64,000 nucleotides of DNA from the NCBI GenBank assembly GCA_963822445.1, contig CAWGHO010000002.1, positions 2,016,001 to 2,080,000 on the forward strand, given 5' to 3'. Below are positions 48,692 to 58,009 of the stretch, one piece after another. The translations under genes were made by a program, and so were the position numbers. Position 1 is the first letter of the stretch. The number at the start of each line of letters is the position of its first letter. The notes below the pieces were generated by a model. It ran no database searches. It had not been told where the DNA came from and saw nothing but the letters and a program-made list of their open reading frames with translations. The stretch is from an uncultured Acidobacteriota bacterium (lineage in GTDB: Bacteria > Acidobacteriota > Thermoanaerobaculia > Gp7-AA8).

Positions 48692-49160
48692 GACAGACCT
48701 CGCCCGCAAAAAGACGCGCCGGTTCATGTTCGGCGCAATCGCCATCGCCCTCGGCGCTTTCGCCGTCATCGCCTACAGCGGCATCAGCAAGAACCTCGTC
48801 TACTACTGGACGCCCTCCGACCTGAAAGCGAACGGCGACAAGGCTTACGGCGCGAACATCCGCCTCGGCGGCATGGTCGTCCCCGGCTCGATCAGGAAGC
48901 TCGGCGGATCGGCCGTCGAATTCGACGTGAAGGACGCCACGGACATCGTTCGCGTGAAGACCTCCAGCGTGCCGCCGCAGATGTTCCGCGAGAACATCGG
49001 CGTCGTGGTCGAGGGGACGATGATGCGCGGCGGCTACTTCCAGTCGAACCGGCTCATGGTCTCGCACAACAATGAGTACAAGCCCCCGGAGAAGGGGCAT
49101 CCGGTCGACCGCAAAGAGCTCGAGCGCATGATGAAATCCGTCGAACAAAACCAGTCATGA
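48678..49160 (+). CDS. ccmE: Heme chaperone
   Basis: LVYYWTPS, IRLGGMV, HNNEY (HxxxY). Confidence 0.92.
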   Translation: MQITETDLARKKTRRFMFGAIAIALGAFAVIAYSGISKNLVYYWTPSDLKANGDKAYGANIRLGGMVVPGSIRKLGGSAVEFDVKDATDIVRVKTSSVPPQMFRENIGVVVEGTMMRGGYFQSNRLMVSHNNEYKPPEKGHPVDRKELERMMKSVEQNQS

Positions 49161-51160
49161 TCCCTGCCCTCGGACGCATCCTCATCCTCGGATCCCTCCT
49201 CGCGGCCGCGGCAGGCTGCATTCTCGGATTCGCCGCCGGCCGCACCCGCTCACTCGATGGTCTGAAGTGGGCGCGCCGGTTCGCGTACCTCTACTCCGCA
49301 CTGATCATCGGCGCGGCCCTGCTGATGGAGTACGCGCTGCTGACGCACGACTTCTCCGTCGGCTACGTCGCGCAGGTCGGCTCGCGCGCGGTTCCGACCT
49401 GGGTCACCATCGTCAGCCTCTGGTCGTCGCTCGAAGGATCGATCCTCTTCTGGGGCCTCGTCCTCGGGGCGTACATCGCCCTGGCCACGTACTTTTCGCG
49501 CGATCGCTACACCGAATATCAGCCCGATGCGATCGGCGTGTGGCTCGGCTGCGCGGCGTTCTTCAGCTTCCTCATCGCCGGCCCTGCCAATCCGTTTCAC
49601 ACCGTGAGTCCGGTGCCGCTCGACGGACCGGGGCCCAATCCGCTGCTGCAGAACCACCTGCTGATGGCCATCCACCCGCCGTTTCTTTACCTCGGCTACG
49701 TCGGCATGACCATCCCCTTCGGCTTCGCCTGCGCGGCGCTGCTGAAAGGACGGATGGGACACGCCGTGCTCAAGCCGCTGCGCGAGTCGCTGATGCTGCC
49801 CTGGATCTTCCAGACCATCGCCATCATGCTCGGCGGCTGGTGGGCGTACGAGGTTCTGGGGTGGGGCGGGTACTGGGCGTGGGATCCGGTCGAGAACGCG
49901 TCGCTGCTGCCGTGGCTCACCGCGACGGCCGCGCTGCACTCGATCATCGTCGTAGAGCGCCGCGGCATTCTCAAAGGCTGGACGGCGACGCTGATTCAGG
50001 CGACGTTCCTCCTGGTCATCCTCGGCACGTTCATGACCCGCTCGGGCGTGTTCAACTCCGTGCACTCTTTCACCCAGAGCGCGATCGGCCCGACCATCCT
50101 CGGATTTCTCGCGGTGACGCTGCTCTTCTCCGTCGCGCTGCTCGCCTTCCGCATCGACAAGCTCGAGGCGGAAGGGAACATCGACGGGGCGATGAGCCGC
50201 GAGGGGATGTTCCTCGTGAACAACCTTCTGTTCGTGCTGCTCACCTTCACGGTGTTGATCGGCACGGTCTTCCCGCTGATCGTCGAGGCGGTGAAGGGCA
50301 AGCAGATGAGCGTCGGCCGCCCTTACTTCGACAGCATGGTCGTGCCGATCGGCGTGATCCTGCTGTTCGTGCTCGGCGTCGGTCCCGCGCTTCCGTGGGG
50401 ACGCGCGACGCGCGAGCAGCTCAAGAAAGCATTGCTGCCGCCGATTGCCACGGCGACGGTCTTCGCCATCCTCGGCTACATTCTTGGAATCCGTTCGCCG
50501 TGGACGGTGGTGACGATGTTCTTCGGCGGCTACACGGCTCACGTCACGCTGAAGGAGATGTTCGTCCCGATGATGCAGCGGCTGCGGCGCGGTGAATCAG
50601 CAGCCACGGCCTTCGTCGACGGACAGCTTCGCCGCGGACGCCGCCGGTTCGGCTCGTACATCGTGCACGCGTCGATGGTCGTGGTGATCATCGCCATCGC
50701 CGTCAGCAGCTCGATGCGCCAGGAAACGGAGCTGCACTTCACGAAGGGGCAGACTCAGAAAGTCTCGGGCTTCGAGCTGACGTTCGTTGGTGCCGAGGAG
50801 CGGCAGGAGCCTCACCGGCTTTCGACGATGGCGCGGTTCAACGTGATGCGCGATGGCAAGCAGGTGGCCACGCTGATCCCGCGCATGAACCAGTACCGGA
50901 TGATGCGCGAGCCCATCGGAACGCCGGACGTGCACACAACCGCCGGCGGCGACTTTTACATCGCGCTCAGCAACATCGACCCCATCGCGCAGACGACGAG
51001 CGTCACGGTCTTCGTCGCGCCGATGATCGTCTGGATCTGGATCGCGGTGATCTTCATGGGCATCGGCGGACTGATCTCCCTGATTCCTTCGCGACGCTCC
51101 GCTGTCATCCTGAGCGAAGCGAAGGACCCCCTGCCGTCAGCAGCTCCCGAGACCGCATGA
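49157..51160 (+). CDS. ccmF: Cytochrome c heme lyase
   Basis: NPLLQ, IHPP, WAYEVLGWGGYWAWDPVENASL, SVHSF. Confidence 0.95.
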   Translation: MIPALGRILILGSLLAAAAGCILGFAAGRTRSLDGLKWARRFAYLYSALIIGAALLMEYALLTHDFSVGYVAQVGSRAVPTWVTIVSLWSSLEGSILFWGLVLGAYIALATYFSRDRYTEYQPDAIGVWLGCAAFFSFLIAGPANPFHTVSPVPLDGPGPNPLLQNHLLMAIHPPFLYLGYVGMTIPFGFACAALLKGRMGHAVLKPLRESLMLPWIFQTIAIMLGGWWAYEVLGWGGYWAWDPVENASLLPWLTATAALHSIIVVERRGILKGWTATLIQATFLLVILGTFMTRSGVFNSVHSFTQSAIGPTILGFLAVTLLFSVALLAFRIDKLEAEGNIDGAMSREGMFLVNNLLFVLLTFTVLIGTVFPLIVEAVKGKQMSVGRPYFDSMVVPIGVILLFVLGVGPALPWGRATREQLKKALLPPIATATVFAILGYILGIRSPWTVVTMFFGGYTAHVTLKEMFVPMMQRLRRGESAATAFVDGQLRRGRRRFGSYIVHASMVVVIIAIAVSSSMRQETELHFTKGQTQKVSGFELTFVGAEERQEPHRLSTMARFNVMRDGKQVATLIPRMNQYRMMREPIGTPDVHTTAGGDFYIALSNIDPIAQTTSVTVFVAPMIVWIWIAVIFMGIGGLISLIPSRRSAVILSEAKDPLPSAAPETA

Positions 51161-51678
51161 ACCGCACCGTCGCCATCATCGGATTGATTCTCGCCGCCGC
51201 GCTGGTCGGCGTACTGTTCGTCGGACTGGGCAAGGATCCGTCGAAGATCCGCTCGCCGCGCATCGGCAAGCCCGCGCCGTCGTTTGCGCTGCGCGAAGTC
51301 GGCACGGGACAGACCGTCGATCTGGCGGCGTTCAAAGGCAAGCCGGTGGTCATCAACTTCTGGGCGACCTGGTGTGGACCTTGTTGGGAAGAGCATCCCG
51401 TGCTCGTCGCGAATGCGCGGAGACTCCAGCCGAACGTGCAGTTCCTCGGCGTGGTGTTCGACGACACCGAGCAGAAGATTCTCAGCTTCCTCCAGCAGCG
51501 CGGCTCGGGGTATCCAACCCTCGTCGATGAAAAAGGCAAGACCGCGATTGCCTATGGCGTCGGCGGCGTGCCGGAGACGTTCTTCCTCGACGCGAACGGC
51601 GTCATCGTGGCGAAGTTCAACGGCCCCATGTCGACCGATGACCTGCAGGAAAATCTGCAAAAGGCGTATCGCCAGTGA
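51157..51678 (+). CDS. ccmG: Thiol-disulfide oxidoreductase CcmG/DsbE
   Basis: NFWATWCGPC, GVPETFF, N-terminal anchor. Confidence 0.88.
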   Translation: MNRTVAIIGLILAAALVGVLFVGLGKDPSKIRSPRIGKPAPSFALREVGTGQTVDLAAFKGKPVVINFWATWCGPCWEEHPVLVANARRLQPNVQFLGVVFDDTEQKILSFLQQRGSGYPTLVDEKGKTAIAYGVGGVPETFFLDANGVIVAKFNGPMSTDDLQENLQKAYRQ

Positions 51679-52160
51679 TCGCGATTCTTCTGCTTCTTCT
51701 TCAGCTGAAAGTGCCCGATGCCGCGCAGTTCGTCGGCGCTCCGCAAGGCGCTCCGATCGCCGGCGCGCGACTCGACGAGCGGACGAACGACGTTTCCGCC
51801 CTGCTGCGCTGCCCGGTCTGCCAGGGCATGGCCGTCGCTGACTCGAAGGCGGAAATGGCCGTGAACATGAAGGCCCAGGTCCGCGAGCTCCTCGAGCGCG
51901 GCTACACCGAAGAACAGATCCTCAAATACTTCGAGCTCTCCTACGGCCAGTTCGTGCTGCTCGAGCCGAAGTTCGAAGGCTTCACCTCGCTGGTCTGGCT
52001 CCTGCCCGTCATCGCCCTCGCAATCGGCGCGGCAGTCGTGTTCTTCAAACTGCGCAAACTCGAGAAGCCCCACCCCGTAACCCCGCAACCCCGTAACCCC
52101 GAAACCGAAGATCCCTATCTCACCCGCGTCCGCGATCTCGTCGGCAAAGGAAAACCATGA
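51675..52160 (+). CDS. ccmH: Cytochrome c biogenesis protein CcmH/CycL
   Basis: LRCPVCQG, YGQFVLLEP, one TM helix. Confidence 0.9.
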   Translation: MIAILLLLLQLKVPDAAQFVGAPQGAPIAGARLDERTNDVSALLRCPVCQGMAVADSKAEMAVNMKAQVRELLERGYTEEQILKYFELSYGQFVLLEPKFEGFTSLVWLLPVIALAIGAAVVFFKLRKLEKPHPVTPQPRNPETEDPYLTRVRDLVGKGKP

Positions 52161-53407
52161 ACCCACCCACCGATTGGACCAGCGCGATCGCCATCGGTAT
52201 CGCGGGCCTGATCCTCGGCGCGCTCCTGATCTACTTCTTCACCCGCCGCAAGAGCGGGCCGGTCATCGAGAGCGATCTCGATCGCAAAGACCTCGAAGCG
52301 AAACGCGACGCCCTCGTCGCGCAACTGCGCGCTCTGCCGGACGACGCAATCGACGAGCGCTCGCGCCTCGAATCCGAGACCGCGTCGGTCCTACGCTCAC
52401 TCGACAAATGGGGAGCGGCCGTCTCGGCCGCATCGACGGGACGTCCCGTCCCGTCGTCAACCATGGACCCTACAGTCAAAGGCTTCCTCTGGGGCTCCGC
52501 TTCAACCGCCGCCCTCGCCGCCCTCCTCTACTTCGTCATGCAGGCCGCCACACCGCGTCCCGAAGGCGAAATGGCCACCGGCGGCTTCCCGACACAACAG
52601 GGCCAGCAGTCCACCGCCGCACCCGATCCGGTGATCGCGCAACTCGAGGCCGCCGTTAAAAACAACCCGAACAACACCACCGCCCGCCTCGATCTCGCGC
52701 AGCTCTATCTCGAGCGCGACAACATGATGGGCGTCTTCGAGCAGACCAAAGTCGTCCTCGAGCGCGAGCCGCAGAACAGCCGCGCGCTGACCTTGGCCGC
52801 ACTCGTTCGAATGGCCATGGGCGAAGCCGAATCGGCCGTGCAGATGCTGCAGCAGGCCACCAGCGTCGATCCGATGAATCTCGATTCGCGCGTCGCTCTT
52901 GCCTGGATTTACGCGCAGACGAACCGGGTCCCCGAAGCGGAAGCCGCGATCGCTGACGCCGTGCGCGTCTCGCCGGAGAACAAGGCCCGCCTCGAAGAAG
53001 TGCTCACGCAGATGAAGGCCCACGCGGCGATGCCGCAGCAGCAGGCCGCGCAAGCTCCGCAGACCGCGCCCGCTGCACCAGCGGCGGCGGCGAGCGGTCC
53101 CGGCGTCACCGTGAACATCGCCCTCGACCCCGGCGCGCAAAGCCGCTCCGGCGTCCTGTTCGTGATCGCCCGCAATCCGCAGGGCGGCCCACCCGTCGCC
53201 GTCAAACGGGTCATGGCCTCGTCGTTCCCGATGACCGTGCAACTGACGTCCGCCGATTCGATGCTCGGCCAGCCGCTCCCCGCATCCTTCCGCGTGGAAG
53301 CCCGACTCGACAGCGACGGCAACGCGACCACGAAACCACCCACCGACCCCAGCGCGTTTCAGGATGGTGTCGGGCCGGGTGCGGCCGTCGCGTTGTCGTT
53401 GAAATGA
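52157..53407 (+). CDS. ccmI: CcmI/CycH-like TPR protein
   Basis: Two TM helices, TPR-like repeats, C-terminal GPPVAVKR...FP...DSM...EARLDSDGNA domain. Confidence 0.75.
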   Translation: MNPPTDWTSAIAIGIAGLILGALLIYFFTRRKSGPVIESDLDRKDLEAKRDALVAQLRALPDDAIDERSRLESETASVLRSLDKWGAAVSAASTGRPVPSSTMDPTVKGFLWGSASTAALAALLYFVMQAATPRPEGEMATGGFPTQQGQQSTAAPDPVIAQLEAAVKNNPNNTTARLDLAQLYLERDNMMGVFEQTKVVLEREPQNSRALTLAALVRMAMGEAESAVQMLQQATSVDPMNLDSRVALAWIYAQTNRVPEAEAAIADAVRVSPENKARLEEVLTQMKAHAAMPQQQAAQAPQTAPAAPAAAASGPGVTVNIALDPGAQSRSGVLFVIARNPQGGPPVAVKRVMASSFPMTVQLTSADSMLGQPLPASFRVEARLDSDGNATTKPPTDPSAFQDGVGPGAAVALSLK

Positions 53408-53424
53408 CGTACACTCCGCCAACA

Positions 53425-53498
53425 GCCTCGGGGTGGCCATTGCGGCCTGAGATCACACCCGCGGAACCTGACCCGGTTCGGACCGGCGTAGGGAAGGC
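53425..53498 (+). ncRNA. TPP (THI-box) riboswitch
   Basis: GGGGTG...CTGAGA-TCACACCC...GAACCTGA-CCCGGT-TCGG-ACCGGCGTAGGGAA; P1 is GCCT/AGGC. Confidence 0.9.
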
Positions 53499-53500
53499 AG

Positions 53501-55531
53501 ATGACGGACATACTCTTTTTTCTTCTCGCACTCACTCTCGACGACACCCAACAACTTCCAACCGATCCCCGCTTTGCCGAGACGATGGTCGTCTCCGCGA
53601 TCCGCGCGGATGACGAGACCCCGGTCACGAAGAGCGACCTCGATCGCCAGGAGCTCGAAGAGCGCTATCACGGCCAGGACGTGCCGCTGCTCCTGCGCGA
53701 CACTCCTTCGATCAACGCCTACATCGAGTCGGGCGTTGGCGGCGCGGGCTACTCGTACATCAGTCTGCGCGGCATCGGCTCGTCGCGCATCAACTTCACG
53801 CTCGATGGCGTTCCGCTCGCTGATTCCGAGGATATGGCCACGTATTTCGCGGACTTCCCGGATCTTGCGCGCTCGCTGGAGAGCATTCAGATCCAGCGCG
53901 GCGTGGGGACGTCGACCGTCGGCTCCGCGTCATACGGCGGCTCGGTGAACATGGAGAGCATCGACCTCGCCCAGGATTCCGCGGTCGACGCGACGCTCGG
54001 AGCGGGCTCGTTCGGAAACCGGCAGGCCAGCGTCGGCTATCACTCCGGCGTGCTGCCCGGCGACTTCTCGCTCTACACGCGGCTCTCGTATCTCGAGAGC
54101 GACGGCTTCCGCGACAACTCCGGCATGCGCCAGCGCAACCTCTTCTTCAGCGGTGCGAAGCAGCTCGGCGACGCGCAGCAGCTCAAGCTCACCGGCTTTT
54201 CCGGTCACGAGCGGCAGCAACTCTCGTTCTACGCGACCGATGCCGACACGCTGAAGAACGACCTGCGCTCCAATCCGTTGCGCGGCGATGAGAAGGACAG
54301 CTTCGGCTACGACCTGGCCCAGTTGCAGTACATCCGCGCCATCGATTCACGCTCGGACATGACCGCGTCGGCCTACTACCAGCGCGGTTACGGCTGGTAC
54401 CGGCTGTTCGACTTCGGAAGTGACGTTCTGCGCGAGTACGGCCTCGATGGAACGCTCGTCGGCGGCATGCTCACCTACTCACACACAAACGGGGCGATGA
54501 CCATCAACAGCGGTTTGCATGTGAACCGCTTCAAGCGCGATCACACCCGCGACGATCTTTCGCTCGACGTTCGCGACTATGCGAATTACGGCGTGAAAGG
54601 GGAGGCCAACGCCTTCGCCAAGGTGAGCTGGGATCGCGAGCGCCTGCATCTCTACGGCGACGCCCAGGTCCGCTACGCTGATTTCGAATACCACGGCGAC
54701 GTGGACGTCGCGCCGATCTCCTGGACATTCTTCAATCCCAAGATCGGCGCTCGCTACACGCTCACGCCGGCGTCGACGGTGTACGGATCGTTCGGTCTGA
54801 CCACGCGCGAGCCGGCCCGCAATGACTTCTTCCACGGCGACGACAATCCCGCCGTCGCGTACGACCCTCGCGCGGTGAAGCCGGAGCGGGTGTACGACCT
54901 CGAGCTGGGCTGGAACTATCGTGCGGCGAACGTCGGACTCGCGGCGAATCTTTACGCGATGGAGTTCCGCAACGAGATCGCCGCTACCGGCGAGCTGTCG
55001 GACATCGGTTTGCCGCTGCGCCGCAACGTCGATCGCAGTTTCCGCCGCGGCCTCGAGCTGGAAGCGGATTGGCGCGTCGTGCCTTCGCTCCGCCTGCGCA
55101 CGAGTGCGAATCTCAGCCGCAATCAGATCGACGAATGGACGCAGTTCTACGACACCGGATCGATCACCTACCGCGACGTGGAGCCGCTGCTCACCCCGAG
55201 CGTGATCGTCAGCCAGTCACTCGAATACCGCCCCCTCACCGCCCTCACTCTGGGCGCAACCGGGCGGTGGGTAGGGGAGTCGTATCTCGACAACACCAAC
55301 CATCCCGATCTGACCACGCCGTCGTTCTTCACCGTCGACGCGACCGCCGCTTACGCGCTGAGCGATCGCGTCCGGTTCACCCTGCAGATCAACAACGCCC
55401 TGAACAACGACCTCATCTATCCGAGCGGCTACAGCTACCTCTACCTCGACAACGGCGCCGCGGCGGGCATCCCGTATTACTACCCGCAGGCGACGCGGAA
55501 CGCGGTGGTGTTGGTGGATCTGGACTTTTGA
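53501..55531 (+). CDS. TonB-dependent receptor, probably for thiamine
   Basis: TonB box ETMVVSA, plug motifs SLRG, LDGVPL and IQIQRG, C-terminal Phe; directly behind the TPP riboswitch. Confidence 0.85.
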   Translation: MTDILFFLLALTLDDTQQLPTDPRFAETMVVSAIRADDETPVTKSDLDRQELEERYHGQDVPLLLRDTPSINAYIESGVGGAGYSYISLRGIGSSRINFTLDGVPLADSEDMATYFADFPDLARSLESIQIQRGVGTSTVGSASYGGSVNMESIDLAQDSAVDATLGAGSFGNRQASVGYHSGVLPGDFSLYTRLSYLESDGFRDNSGMRQRNLFFSGAKQLGDAQQLKLTGFSGHERQQLSFYATDADTLKNDLRSNPLRGDEKDSFGYDLAQLQYIRAIDSRSDMTASAYYQRGYGWYRLFDFGSDVLREYGLDGTLVGGMLTYSHTNGAMTINSGLHVNRFKRDHTRDDLSLDVRDYANYGVKGEANAFAKVSWDRERLHLYGDAQVRYADFEYHGDVDVAPISWTFFNPKIGARYTLTPASTVYGSFGLTTREPARNDFFHGDDNPAVAYDPRAVKPERVYDLELGWNYRAANVGLAANLYAMEFRNEIAATGELSDIGLPLRRNVDRSFRRGLELEADWRVVPSLRLRTSANLSRNQIDEWTQFYDTGSITYRDVEPLLTPSVIVSQSLEYRPLTALTLGATGRWVGESYLDNTNHPDLTTPSFFTVDATAAYALSDRVRFTLQINNALNNDLIYPSGYSYLYLDNGAAAGIPYYYPQATRNAVVLVDLDF

Positions 55532-56088
55532 CCCTCTTCGAAATCCTCGCCGCCCTCATCACCCTGACCAGCATCTACCTGGCCACGCGCGAGAACGTCT
55601 GGTACTACCCGACCGGCATCGTCAGCGTGGTGATGTACGCCTGGGTCTACTTCGGCGCGCGGCTTTATGCCGAGGCGGGGTTGCAGGGGGTGTGGCTGGT
55701 CTTGCTGGTTTATGGATGGTGGGCGTGGCTGTACGGCGGGAAGAATCACACCGAGTTGCCGGTCACGCGCACGCCGCGCTGGGCCTGGATCGCCGTGATC
55801 GTCAGCGGCGCGGCCATGACCGTGATCATCGTCGCCATCCAGCGCAACTTCACCGACAACCCCGCGCCGTTCGTCGATTCCTCGATCGCTGCGTGGAGCA
55901 TCGTCGCGCAGTGGATGACTGCGCGGAAGTGGCTCGAGAACTGGCTGTTCTGGATCGCCGTCAACGCCGTGGCCGTGCCGCTCTACATCACCCGCGCGCT
56001 GTGGCCGACAGCCGCGCTCTACGCAATCCTCTTCGTCCTCGGTATCGAAGGCTGGCGCAAATGGCGACGCTCACTCGCATCTGCCTGA
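55528..56088 (+). CDS. PnuC-family vitamin transporter (PnuT-like by regulation)
   Basis: TTG start overlapping the previous TGA; YGWWAW, PFVDS, AQWMTARKWLENWLFWIAVN. Confidence 0.85.
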   Translation: MTLFEILAALITLTSIYLATRENVWYYPTGIVSVVMYAWVYFGARLYAEAGLQGVWLVLLVYGWWAWLYGGKNHTELPVTRTPRWAWIAVIVSGAAMTVIIVAIQRNFTDNPAPFVDSSIAAWSIVAQWMTARKWLENWLFWIAVNAVAVPLYITRALWPTAALYAILFVLGIEGWRKWRRSLASA

Positions 56089-56621
56089 CCGGTCCGGAGT
56101 GCACCGGCAAGACTGTTTTGGCCGCGGCACTCGCTCGCGAGCTGAACACGGTGTGGGTTCCGGAGTTCGCGCGCGAGCACGCCGAAACGTGTGGCCACGA
56201 GCTCAGCGCCGCCGACGTCGAGCCGATCGCGCGCGGGCAGATGGCGAATGAAGATCGTGTAACGCCCTCAGCCGACCGCGTTCTGCTGCTCGATACCGAC
56301 CTGATCTCCACCGTCGTCTACGCGCGTCACTACTACGGCTCCTGCCCGCGATGGATCGAAGAGGAAGCGCGGCGGCGCCGCGCCGATCTGTATCTCCTGC
56401 TCGACACTGACGTTCCCTGGAACCCGGATTCGGTGCGCGATGCGGGCGGTGATGAACGGGAGGATCTCTTCGACGCGTTCCGCGCGGCGCTGGATGAATT
56501 CGAAACGAGGTGGGAGATCGTCAGCGGCGACCGCGACGCGCGGCGCGCTTACGCGGCGCTCGCGATATCCACGGTGATCAGCAGCAGACACCCTTCCTCG
56601 GACGCCACGATATCCCCATGA
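56061..56621 (+). CDS. NadR-type P-loop kinase (kinase domain only)
   Basis: ICLTGPECTGKT, VPEFARE, LLLDTD, DVPWNPDSVRD. Confidence 0.8.
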   Translation: MATLTRICLTGPECTGKTVLAAALARELNTVWVPEFAREHAETCGHELSAADVEPIARGQMANEDRVTPSADRVLLLDTDLISTVVYARHYYGSCPRWIEEEARRRRADLYLLLDTDVPWNPDSVRDAGGDEREDLFDAFRAALDEFETRWEIVSGDRDARRAYAALAISTVISSRHPSSDATISP

Positions 56622-57025
56622 TGCGAGCTCGCCTCGGCGTGATGGAAATCGCCGGGGTTGAGCGCCAGCGCGCCGATGCGGCAGCTGCCGCGGATCACGA
56701 ACGAGTCCTCGCCCCCTTCGTGATCGTGCGCGGGGAGCATGGCCAGTGGCTCGAGATCGAGGAGGAAGCTCATCGTGCCGCGACGAAGATCTTTGTTGAG
56801 GCGCTTCGTCCGCGCACCGGGCGCGCACGTCGTCCAGCGGCCTTCATCCTGACGGACGGTCACCGACTCGTGCTCGCCGGGGACGCTCTCATCGAGCTGC
56901 TGGCGGCCGCGGACCGCGGCGAGGACGCGCGCGCGAACGAACGCCGGCGGCTCGATCGGCTCGATCGACTCCGCGGCGATGCCGTCCAGCATCTCCAATT
57001 CTTCTCGTGTCAGCGCATCGCTCAT
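56549..57025 (-). CDS. ChrR-like cupin protein (anti-sigma-like)
   Basis: PPAFVRARVLAA linker, PAHDHEGGEDSFVIRG, GDFHHAEASSHH. Confidence 0.72.
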   Translation of the reverse strand: MSDALTREELEMLDGIAAESIEPIEPPAFVRARVLAAVRGRQQLDESVPGEHESVTVRQDEGRWTTCAPGARTKRLNKDLRRGTMSFLLDLEPLAMLPAHDHEGGEDSFVIRGSCRIGALALNPGDFHHAEASSHHGDIVASEEGCLLLITVDIASAA

Positions 57026-57414
57026 TTCGTCTGGCGCCCCGCAACCTCGAGCCGAAGCTCGCTCATTCCGGTCCGGAGCATCGCCCGAACCGTTTCTTCC
57101 GGCAGAGAATACACGCGAGCGAGGTCGGCCACGGACATCCCGCCGTAGAACGCGGCCTCGACGAGCTGCCGTGGAGCCGGTCTCATCCCGGATGGTTCTA
57201 CGGACGGCGCGGTCGACCGGTCGTATCGGGTCAGCGCTTTCTCGCGCGTCAGGCGCACCAACTCGGCCAGTTCGGCCGGCACTGAGGCCGAGGTGAAGAT
57301 CTCCTCGAGAACCGCTGCCGCTGCCGTTTCGTCGCCGGTGATGCGGAGCGCCAGTGCAAAAAGCCGCGGCGCGTGCGCATCGTACAGAGCGATGATGTCG
57401 GAGGAAGATGACAC
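57022..57414 (-). CDS. Short, degenerate ECF sigma factor
   Basis: LYDAHAPRLFALALRITGD (region 2) and AFYGGMSVADLA...PEETVRAMLRTGM (region 4). GTG 57414 inferred; ATGA overlap with the cupin gene. Confidence 0.65.
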   Translation of the reverse strand: MSSSSDIIALYDAHAPRLFALALRITGDETAAAAVLEEIFTSASVPAELAELVRLTREKALTRYDRSTAPSVEPSGMRPAPRQLVEAAFYGGMSVADLARVYSLPEETVRAMLRTGMSELRLEVAGRQTK

Positions 57415-57434
57415 GGGAGCCCCAAGTTTAGCCG

Positions 57435-57470
57435 ACCTGACAACCTGATAACCTGACAACCCGACAACCA
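57435..57470. repeat. Solo octamer tandem array
   Basis: ACCTGACA ACCTGATA ACCTGACA ACCCGACA ACCA directly before ATG 57473. Confidence 0.85.
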
Positions 57471-57472
57471 AA

Positions 57473-58009
57473 ATGAACTGGCTCCTCAAGAACTTCCTCC
57501 GCGGCCTGGTCATCGTCGTCCCGATCGCGCTCACCGTCTATCTGCTCTTCCAGGCCTTTCTCGCGCTCGATCAGATCCTCAAGCTGCGCTATCCCGGTCT
57601 CGGTGTCGCCGTCCTGCTCCTGGCCACGATCGCCATCGGTGCGCTGACGTCGAACTTCGTCGGACGGCGGGTCTTCGGGCTCACCGAGATGATGTTCACC
57701 AAGGCGCCGATCGTCAGGATCATCTACGCGGCCATCAAGGATCTGCTGGAAGCCTTCGTCGGGAACAAGCGCCGCTTCGATCGGCCGGTCACGGTGATGG
57801 TCGGCGAGCACGCGAAGATGCTCGGGTTCATCACCCAGGAAGAGCTCGGTGCGCTCGGGTCGGCGGGAGAGATCGCGGTGTACGTCCCCTTCTCCTACAC
57901 CTGGGACGGTTGCCTGATGATCGTGCCGCGGGAACGCGTCCAGCCGCTCTCCGTGGACAGCGCGAGCGTGCTCGCGTTCGCTGTCTCCGGCGGCGTCTCA
58001 AAGGTCTGA
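57473..58009 (+). CDS. DUF502 family membrane protein
   Basis: FLRGLVIVVPIALT, PIVRIIYAAIKD, VYVP, VSGG. Confidence 0.82.
   Translation: MNWLLKNFLRGLVIVVPIALTVYLLFQAFLALDQILKLRYPGLGVAVLLLATIAIGALTSNFVGRRVFGLTEMMFTKAPIVRIIYAAIKDLLEAFVGNKRRFDRPVTVMVGEHAKMLGFITQEELGALGSAGEIAVYVPFSYTWDGCLMIVPRERVQPLSVDSASVLAFAVSGGVSKV

Follow-up and report, generated by a model that had tools for sequence, protein, structure and literature searches.

A stand-alone kinase of the NadR type, encoded in the 64,000-nucleotide stretch of an uncultured Acidobacteriota genome that we analyzed (the window), probably phosphorylates thiamine to thiamine monophosphate (TMP) for ThiL, a physiological reaction that we assign from sequence comparisons. 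Its gene is the last of three overlapping genes that follow a thiamine pyrophosphate (TPP) riboswitch, the other two encoding a TonB-dependent receptor and a PnuC-family inner-membrane protein (Table 1), and it is close to certain that the locus is a thiamine uptake and salvage operon. The best explanation of our results is that the host is a thiamine auxotroph and that the locus is a complete thiamine scavenging operon. Comparative genomics supports the assignment of the kinase, through gaps in the thiamine pathway, a complementary distribution and linkage to the riboswitch. We observed directly the riboswitch, the order and overlaps of the genes, the kinase fold, the missing pathway steps and the phyletic pattern; thiamine is the presumed substrate and TMP the presumed product. 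The genome (6.0 Mb in 3 contigs, 94.7% complete) has its nearest relatives among the Thermoanaerobaculia, Acidobacteriota.

Table 1. Features of the riboswitch-linked locus, in window coordinates.
Feature	Position	Strand	Model match
TPP riboswitch aptamer	53419..53511	+	RF00059 62.5 bits, gathering score 54.3, E 7.2e-10, model 1-105 in full
TonB-dependent receptor, 676 aa	53501..55531	+	PF07715 Plug 55.9 bits; PF00593 TonB_dep_Rec_b-barrel 94.4 bits
PnuC-family inner-membrane protein, 186 aa, TTG start	55528..56088	+	PF04973 NMN_transporter/PnuC 171.2 bits; TIGR01528 82.9 bits
Stand-alone NadR-type P-loop kinase, 186 aa, ATG start	56061..56621	+	PF13521 AAA_28 130 bits

The riboswitch and the genes behind it

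A sequence-only reading of this DNA had described a TPP aptamer followed by three overlapping genes, and the description held. The RF00059 scan that it recommended was positive, with a score above the gathering score across the full aptamer, and the start that it gave (53425) falls inside the aptamer. The receptor stop and the transporter start have 4 nt in common (TTGA), and the transporter and kinase genes overlap by 28 nt. RF00059 was the single cmscan match, no other Rfam family being found in the whole window, and this aptamer is the only TPP riboswitch in the 6.0-Mb genome.

The 3′ end of the aptamer reads GGGAAGGCAG, with the receptor ATG (53501–53503) directly after it. The Rfam alignment gives AGGCA as the 3′ strand of helix P1; a Shine-Dalgarno-like GGGAAGG at 53491–53497 overlaps the junction and this strand, and the receptor start codon lies two bases past them. 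GGGAAGG(C) followed by 1–5 nt and ATG is kept in 22 of the 33 aptamer 3′ ends that we lined up, the other 11 having a longer spacer. A terminator scan found no terminator-like site on the plus strand. From this layout we infer translational repression, in which TPP closes P1 and the block is handed down the operon via the overlapping genes. A minimum free energy fold of 53412–53530 did not reproduce the aptamer and was no better than shuffled sequences (z 0.77), a calculation that is uninformative for a ligand-stabilized RNA. Seven Holophagales-type loci (L044, L052, L068, L072, L078, L085, and L092) have a conserved GC-rich hairpin (CGGAAGCGGGAGCTTCCGC-like) after the aptamer and ∼300 nt between aptamer and receptor gene. 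These loci thus have an expression platform of their own, whereas the window shows the direct form with its Shine-Dalgarno sequence in P1.

The PnuC-family protein scores above the cut-off of its family model and carries the motif of Pnu transporters in transmembrane segment 6 (TM6), W139-L-F-W142-I-A-V-N146, which fits WxxW(x)3D/N. Because its gene sits behind the genome's sole TPP riboswitch, we assign it a thiamine role, as a putative PnuT. The receptor, which falls under the cut-off for every NCBIfam receptor subfamily, would be a thiamine receptor and the counterpart of Bacteroides OMthi. According to passages of PMC5749112, the Pnu motif ends in D in S. woodyi PnuT and in N in the nicotinamide riboside (NR) transporter of N. 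mucosa. We considered this last residue as a substrate marker and rejected it, given that it is N in 23 and D in 11 of the riboswitch-linked PnuTs; the motif comparison gave no sequence marker that tells PnuT from PnuC. The genome also encodes a second PnuC paralogue of 192 aa (PF04973, 181 bits; G000:C1:1446251–1446790 on the minus strand, corresponding to L006:1465–2043), which is flanked by genes for a Ser/Thr protein kinase and a sigma-54-type response regulator and has no riboswitch or kinase partner. Its likeness to N. mucosa PnuC amounts to 56.5 bits, versus 21.5 for the riboswitch-linked copy, and its TM6 motif ends in D.

The third gene product had been read from the sequence as a stand-alone NadR-type kinase, and the family models agree. 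Besides the AAA_28 match, TIGR01526 aligns only over positions 164–319, the C-terminal kinase part (105 bits versus a cut-off of 341), and NF005988 reaches 54.6 bits versus 201. The protein thus stays under the whole-protein cut-offs and has neither a nicotinamide mononucleotide adenylyltransferase (NMNAT) nor a helix-turn-helix (HTH) domain, placing it outside NadR proper; by family model, Walker A/B and lid residues, and fold it belongs to the NadR ribosylnicotinamide-kinase domain (AAA_28). Walker A is G11-x-E13-x-x-G16-K17-T18 and Walker B is D78-T79. In our alignment G11, E13, G16, K17, D78, T79, and the lid residues D123 and R126 are invariant, and W120 is present in at least 90% of the rows. 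The AlphaFold2 model (pLDDT 93.4) superimposes best on the NadR kinase domain 8x7f among PDB entries (TMq 0.86, root-mean-square deviation 1.6 Å) and gives a TMq of 0.78 with 1lw7, thymidylate kinases ranking after the NadR domains. A PDB sequence search returned NadR kinase domains only (E 3.5e-11 to 1.7e-7), and in structural alignments the kinase is 20–26% identical to the solved ones. It is a P-loop protein and fits neither thiamine pyrophosphokinase (TPK) nor E. coli-type ThiK. The expectation that annotation pipelines would label it as nicotinamide adenine dinucleotide (NAD) salvage is borne out by the JGI names of close relatives, “NadR type nicotinamide-nucleotide adenylyltransferase” or “nicotinamide riboside kinase”; at NCBI close relatives are called “ATP-binding protein.”

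The kinase has 2082 stand-alone relatives at E ≤ 1e-5, while longer relatives, 37–57% identical, have an N-terminal cytidylyltransferase-like NMNAT domain. In a tree of 111 kinase domains, rooted at the midpoint, 85 kinases form one clade (SH-like approximate likelihood ratio test, SH-aLRT, 97) with zero NMNAT-fused members within it. This clade holds 79 of the 80 stand-alone kinases, 4 PnuC fusions, 1 TerB fusion, and 1 glyoxalase fusion, and the NMNAT-fused forms lie outside it, as a basal grade under midpoint rooting. Riboswitch-linked and riboswitch-less (Gemmatimonadota) kinases are interleaved within the clade, and this interleaving, together with the ThiE pattern described below, argues for one function across it. 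The PnuC-kinase fusions (P0130, P0132, P0134, and P0136) are 364–372 aa long, and the kinase-TerB and kinase-glyoxalase fusions (P0125; P0123) have 339 aa and 328 aa. Three genomes belonging to a single genus have a kinase match that breaks into two in-frame pieces, 50–90 nt apart, between residues 59–68 (G039:C7:17086–17694, G043:C59:8750–9316, and G079:C73:2550–3083); judged from the sequence, the break looks like an insertion of ∼20–30 residues that follows the third helix rather than a frameshift.

The riboswitch-pnuC-AAA_28 synteny, which had been put forward for a survey, recurs widely. We compared 80 related loci, finding riboswitches by an aptamer-core regular expression and, for part of the set, by Rfam. 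The order riboswitch-receptor-PnuT-kinase on one strand occurs in 39 loci, 34 by pattern and 5 more (L032, L035, L042, L046, and L049) by Rfam after the pattern had missed them; they come from Thermoanaerobaculia, Holophagales, other Acidobacteriota, and one Methylococcaceae. In 2 loci, from Gemmatimonadaceae, a riboswitch-receptor unit is convergent on PnuC-kinase. The remaining loci comprise 10 cut by contig ends, 14 that are riboswitch-less by Rfam, and 15 that are negative by pattern only, which are weak negatives because the pattern missed five Rfam riboswitches. Among the 41 kinase genomes in our sample of the class (121 genomes), 35 have a same-strand TPP riboswitch 0.6–5.3 kb upstream and 2 others show the convergent arrangement. 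This leaves four genomes: G009 and G116 (fragmented assemblies), G052 (split, with PnuT-kinase apart from riboswitch-receptor), and G089, whose 29%-identical match probably represents another family by sequence. Two variants, riboswitch-receptor-kinase with no PnuT between (G014) and riboswitch-PnuT-kinase with no receptor (G088), indicate that it is the kinase itself, and not just the transporter, that is tied to the riboswitch. Of 78 loci, 60 have overlapping PnuT and kinase genes, and in 15 others the two genes are separated by no more than 60 nt. One Thermoanaerobaculia locus (L021:2418–3521) has two tandem PnuC-family genes between receptor and kinase, 73% and 46% identical to the window PnuT, with motifs ending in N and D. 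The neighbors of the Gemmatimonadota PnuC-kinase pairs (M20 peptidase, glucose/sorbosone dehydrogenase, LigD, and a two-component system) gave no functional clue.

Thiamine pathway gaps and the distribution of the kinase

The genome check for thiN, thiK, and thiL that the sequence-only reading had asked for came out in favor of that reading, as did its other computational proposals. TPK (PF04263 TPK_catalytic, ThiN) has no match in the genome. The same holds for NF007620, which we take to be the E. coli-type ThiK model and whose control was positive only in E. coli. ThiC was not found in the genome, and ThiE and ThiD have only sub-threshold matches there (∼21 bits). ThiL is present, at 258 bits and above its cut-off. 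The ThiM model reaches 37.6 bits (cut-off 27) within a 740-aa frame that is presumably another carbohydrate-kinase-type protein. With none of ThiC, ThiD, ThiE, TPK, and E. coli-type ThiK found, ThiL is left with no visible source of TMP: judged by gene content, no known route to thiamine or TMP seems to be available to the organism, which has nevertheless kept ThiL. The window kinase is the one AAA_28 protein over the cut-off in this genome, and the only candidate for the missing TMP-making step sits behind the only TPP riboswitch. The earlier suggestion that the kinase acts on thiamine “or a precursor” therefore survives in its first half, which the distribution and ThiL support at the level of sequence; the second half is unlikely because, with ThiD and ThiE not found, a phosphorylated precursor has no use.

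We propose the following cycle. When TPP is scarce, P1 would be open, leaving the ribosome-binding site and start codon of the receptor gene free, and the three overlapping, translationally coupled genes would then be made. The TonB-dependent receptor would bring thiamine over the outer membrane, the PnuT facilitator would let it diffuse over the inner membrane, and the kinase would use ATP to phosphorylate its hydroxyethyl group, trapping it as TMP. ThiL, encoded elsewhere in the genome, would convert TMP to TPP, which would close the riboswitch and switch the operon off. TMP rather than TPP is the expected product because ThiL is kept. In this scheme the kinase would stand in for ThiK as a non-orthologous replacement and offer an alternative to TPK; it would descend from NadR-like proteins whose ribosylnicotinamide-kinase domain persisted when NMNAT was lost.

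The distribution of the kinase was followed in the class sample, in a Gemmatimonadetes sample of 61 genomes, and in a sample of 201 genomes from the phylum Acidobacteriota. In the class, the kinase occurs in 41 genomes, TPK in 26, and ThiE (over cut-off) in 57, and their union covers 121/121 genomes; the only overlaps are G063 and G089 (kinase and ThiE) and G050 (TPK and ThiE). ThiL accompanies the kinase in 38 of the 39 kinase-only genomes and ThiE in 53 of the 54 ThiE-only genomes, and is present in 0 of the 25 TPK-only genomes. This pattern fits a kinase that, like ThiE, would yield TMP, whereas TPK bypasses TMP. One ThiE-bearing genome (G106) has no ThiL or TPK match. Within the window's own family, the four kinase-less genera are four of the five genera with ThiE, and in another family of the class the sole genus with the kinase is the sole genus without ThiE; by these sequence data, the kinase/ThiE switches were not one event.

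The same complementarity holds outside the class. In the Gemmatimonadetes sample, 4 genomes have the kinase and the remaining 57 have ThiE; none has both, and none lacks both. We also scanned eight kinase genomes from outside the class, belonging to Gemmatimonadota (six), Vicinamibacterales (one), and Methylococcaceae (one): ThiL is present in 8/8, 7 of them over the cut-off, and TPK in 0/8. In the phylum sample, 25/201 genomes have a kinase match (E ≤ 1e-20) and 166/201 have ThiE. The 16 kinase matches outside the class comprise nine stand-alone and seven NMNAT-fused proteins. All nine stand-alone kinases lie in receptor-PnuT-kinase order, with an Rfam TPP riboswitch upstream in 8/9 and ThiE in 0/9, and all 18 phylum genomes with a stand-alone kinase (nine in the class and nine outside) are without ThiE. 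TPK is present in 3/3 of the ThiE-less, kinase-less phylum genomes scanned, 13 further ones being outside the scan. As a control we used NadA, an enzyme of de novo NAD synthesis, which occurs in 40/41 kinase genomes, while the kinase occurs in only 1 of the 25 NadA-less genomes. As far as gene presence indicates, the distribution of the kinase follows the thiamine pathway, not the NAD pathway. The samples include unpublished genomes, all with ThiE and without the kinase (class, G004 and G104; Gemmatimonadetes, G143, G147, and G154; phylum, G004, G231, and G326); leaving them out reduces the three samples to 119, 58, and 198 genomes and those with ThiE to 55, 54, and 163, with no effect on the conclusions.

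Other functions considered for the kinase

Several observations weigh against the assignment of thiamine as the substrate. The genomes of one lineage are not independent samples, and the absences come from sampled draft genomes. Kinase and ThiE occur together in G063 and in Methylococcaceae G124, and the kinase-only genome G027 (200 contigs) has no ThiL match; the gaps in G027 and G106 may be assembly gaps or point to further enzymes. In 12/12 Rfam-scanned Gemmatimonadota PnuC-kinase loci there is no TPP riboswitch within ∼6 kb. The window PnuT motif ends in N, like that of the N. mucosa NR transporter and unlike that of S. woodyi PnuT (D). No solved structure has an acceptor in the NadR kinase site, and the kinase domain is empty in the L. 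lactis NadR structure as described in part of PMC7221760. Residues conserved only in the stand-alone clade numbered none in an alignment with NMNAT-fused relatives, in which E35, R38, D52, D78, T79, T84, R106, Y111, D117, W120, D123, R126, R133, and R161 are equally conserved; lacking a clade-specific residue, the acceptor pocket may still take NR. Only two sites, 69 (R) and 121 (V, after the lid tryptophan), are conserved in the NMNAT-fused relatives and variable here, and this variability may reflect relaxed constraint, which as sequence evidence is weak. The genome also holds the orphan second PnuC and no other ribosylnicotinamide kinase-type protein, and the kinase may have a second role in NR trapping.

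The transcription of the locus raises a further point of this kind. The aptamer begins 12 nt past the stop of ccmI, and a promoter scan found no promoter-like site, the ccmI-aptamer gap included, so that the thiamine operon may be read through from ccmI or begin inside it. Co-transcription of the receptor, PnuT, and kinase genes is suggested by their overlaps alone. The ccm cluster (49157–53407, plus strand) consists of overlapping genes for ccmF (CcmF_C), a ccmG-like redoxin, ccmH, and a ccmI-like TPR/CycH protein. Downstream of the operon lies a convergent pair (56549–57534, minus strand) encoding a ChrR-cupin (anti-sigma-like) and a sigma-70 region-4 protein, and the 3′ end of the ChrR-cupin gene overlaps the last ∼73 nt of the kinase gene.

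Thiamine and NR are both cationic N-heterocycles with a primary alcohol, and a dual-substrate kinase might accept both, serving PnuT and also trapping NR that enters via the second PnuC. The conserved residues held in common with NMNAT-fused NadR-like relatives, none of them clade-specific, would suit such an enzyme, as would a second PnuC in a genome with no other AAA_28 kinase. We nonetheless consider it unlikely, since the distribution of the kinase follows the loss of ThiE and not that of NadA, TPP would shut the kinase off regardless of the need for NAD, the NMNAT partner has been lost in the stand-alone clade, and constraint at sites 69 and 121, which the NR-kinase relatives conserve, is relaxed here.

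A plain NR kinase, carried along as a hitch-hiker from an ancestral PnuC-NadR pair while the riboswitch serves the receptor and transporter, would agree with the family models and database names (NadR or NR kinase), with NadR kinase domains as the best structural matches, and with the NMNAT fusion of the 37–57% identical relatives. This is very improbable, because the kinase gene overlaps that of PnuT by 28 nt behind the one TPP riboswitch in the genome, and because the riboswitch link persists where PnuT is not between (G014). It also leaves aside that, in two phyla, the kinase is complementary to ThiE and TPK in its distribution and occurs together with ThiL. NadA in 40/41 kinase genomes likewise speaks against it, and the NMNAT-fused forms are riboswitch-less and stand outside the clade.

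Still fainter is the prospect that the kinase acts on hydroxyethylthiazole, a thiamine analogue, or TMP, or makes TPP directly. In its favor, passages of PMC5749112 report that S. woodyi PnuT also carries pyrithiamine and oxythiamine. Against it, a phosphorylated thiazole or pyrimidine would be useless without ThiE and ThiD, and ThiL in 38/39 kinase-only versus 0/25 TPK-only genomes argues for TMP as the product. P-loop kinases of the NadR-kinase fold, moreover, transfer a single phosphate, which speaks against direct formation of TPP. A non-catalytic protein that regulates or gates the Pnu transporter in dependence on ATP, as the PnuC-kinase fusions and the tight coupling of the PnuT and kinase genes might suggest, has next to no probability, because the residues that form Walker A, Walker B, and the lid in the NadR kinase domain do not vary and ThiL kept without a TMP source would be left unexplained.

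Implications and comparison with known systems

Thiamine phosphorylation by this kinase, the reading that we prefer, would bear on many genomes. We hold it likely, with slightly less confidence than for the reaction itself, that stand-alone NadR-derived kinases are a third, hitherto unrecognized bacterial thiamine salvage family beside ThiK and TPK, that this family came about when the ribosylnicotinamide-kinase domain parted from NMNAT and was recruited to PnuT, and that it accounts for auxotrophs in which ThiL has no source of TMP. Across our samples these kinases would provide the salvage route of about one third of Thermoanaerobaculia species (41/121), of 18/201 Acidobacteriota, and of a subset of Gemmatimonadota. 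Thiamine auxotrophy and the exchange of vitamins shape communities in soil and water, and predicting vitamer needs depends on knowing the salvage enzymes. ThiL-bearing genomes without ThiE, ThiK, and TPK look metabolically broken, a gap that the kinase would close for many uncultured Acidobacteriota and Gemmatimonadota. The assignment, if true, would also correct a systematic mis-annotation of thousands of proteins named NadR, NR kinase, or “ATP-binding protein,” and would mean that a kinase and a facilitator family shifted together between cationic vitamins, from nicotinamide riboside to thiamine, with few visible sequence changes.

PnuT was reportedly first predicted by Rodionov et al. in 2002 (J Biol Chem). 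In the literature we found no paper tying an AAA_28/NadR-type kinase to PnuT, thiamine, or a TPP riboswitch; an earlier in-silico mention is possible, the PnuT founding paper, Pnu reviews, and supplements lying outside the search. The known bacterial thiamine salvage enzymes named in parts of PMC3020362 and PMC6593275 are ThiK and ThiN/TPK. In the passages of PMC5749112 that bear on substrates, S. woodyi PnuT binds thiamine and not TMP or TPP, which fits trapping by phosphorylation, the logic accepted there for Pnu transporters.

The window locus resembles the PnuC-NadR pair of NR salvage (PDB 8x7f, 1lw7, and 6gye) in transporter family, kinase fold and motifs, and the trapping principle. It differs in that the kinase has no NMNAT or HTH domain, in its predicted control by TPP rather than NAD, and in a kinase distribution that tracks thiamine auxotrophy, not NadA. 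The nearest relatives, the NMNAT-fused Acidobacteriota proteins (P0121–P0151; L100–L106), are 37–57% identical and share all the conserved kinase residues, but unlike the window kinase they are without riboswitch or receptor and fall outside the clade. A PnuC gene adjoins in 6/7 of these loci, with a TPP riboswitch in 0/7 and a receptor gene in 0/7, and ThiE is also present in 5 of the seven genomes and absent in 2. The classical PnuC-NadR pair and the riboswitch-controlled trio thus coexist in the phylum and behave differently.

The proposed reaction, thiamine + ATP to TMP (EC 2.7.1.89), feeding ThiL, is that of E. coli ThiK (its role as given in part of PMC3020362), but the window kinase comes from a different protein family. 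The closest parallel in operon logic is the Bacteroides operon OMthi-pnuT-tnr3, which passages of PMC5613172 describe as a TPP riboswitch, a TonB-dependent receptor, PnuT, and TPK/Tnr3. Both systems combine riboswitch, receptor, PnuT, and a known or, in the window, predicted thiamine-phosphorylating enzyme, often in one operon, and would share the logic of coupling uptake to metabolic trapping. In Bacteroides, TPK/Tnr3 gives TPP in one step; here an unrelated P-loop kinase would act and ThiL would be required. The novelty of the window locus would accordingly lie in a known operon logic that has taken on a new enzyme family as its predicted thiamine kinase.

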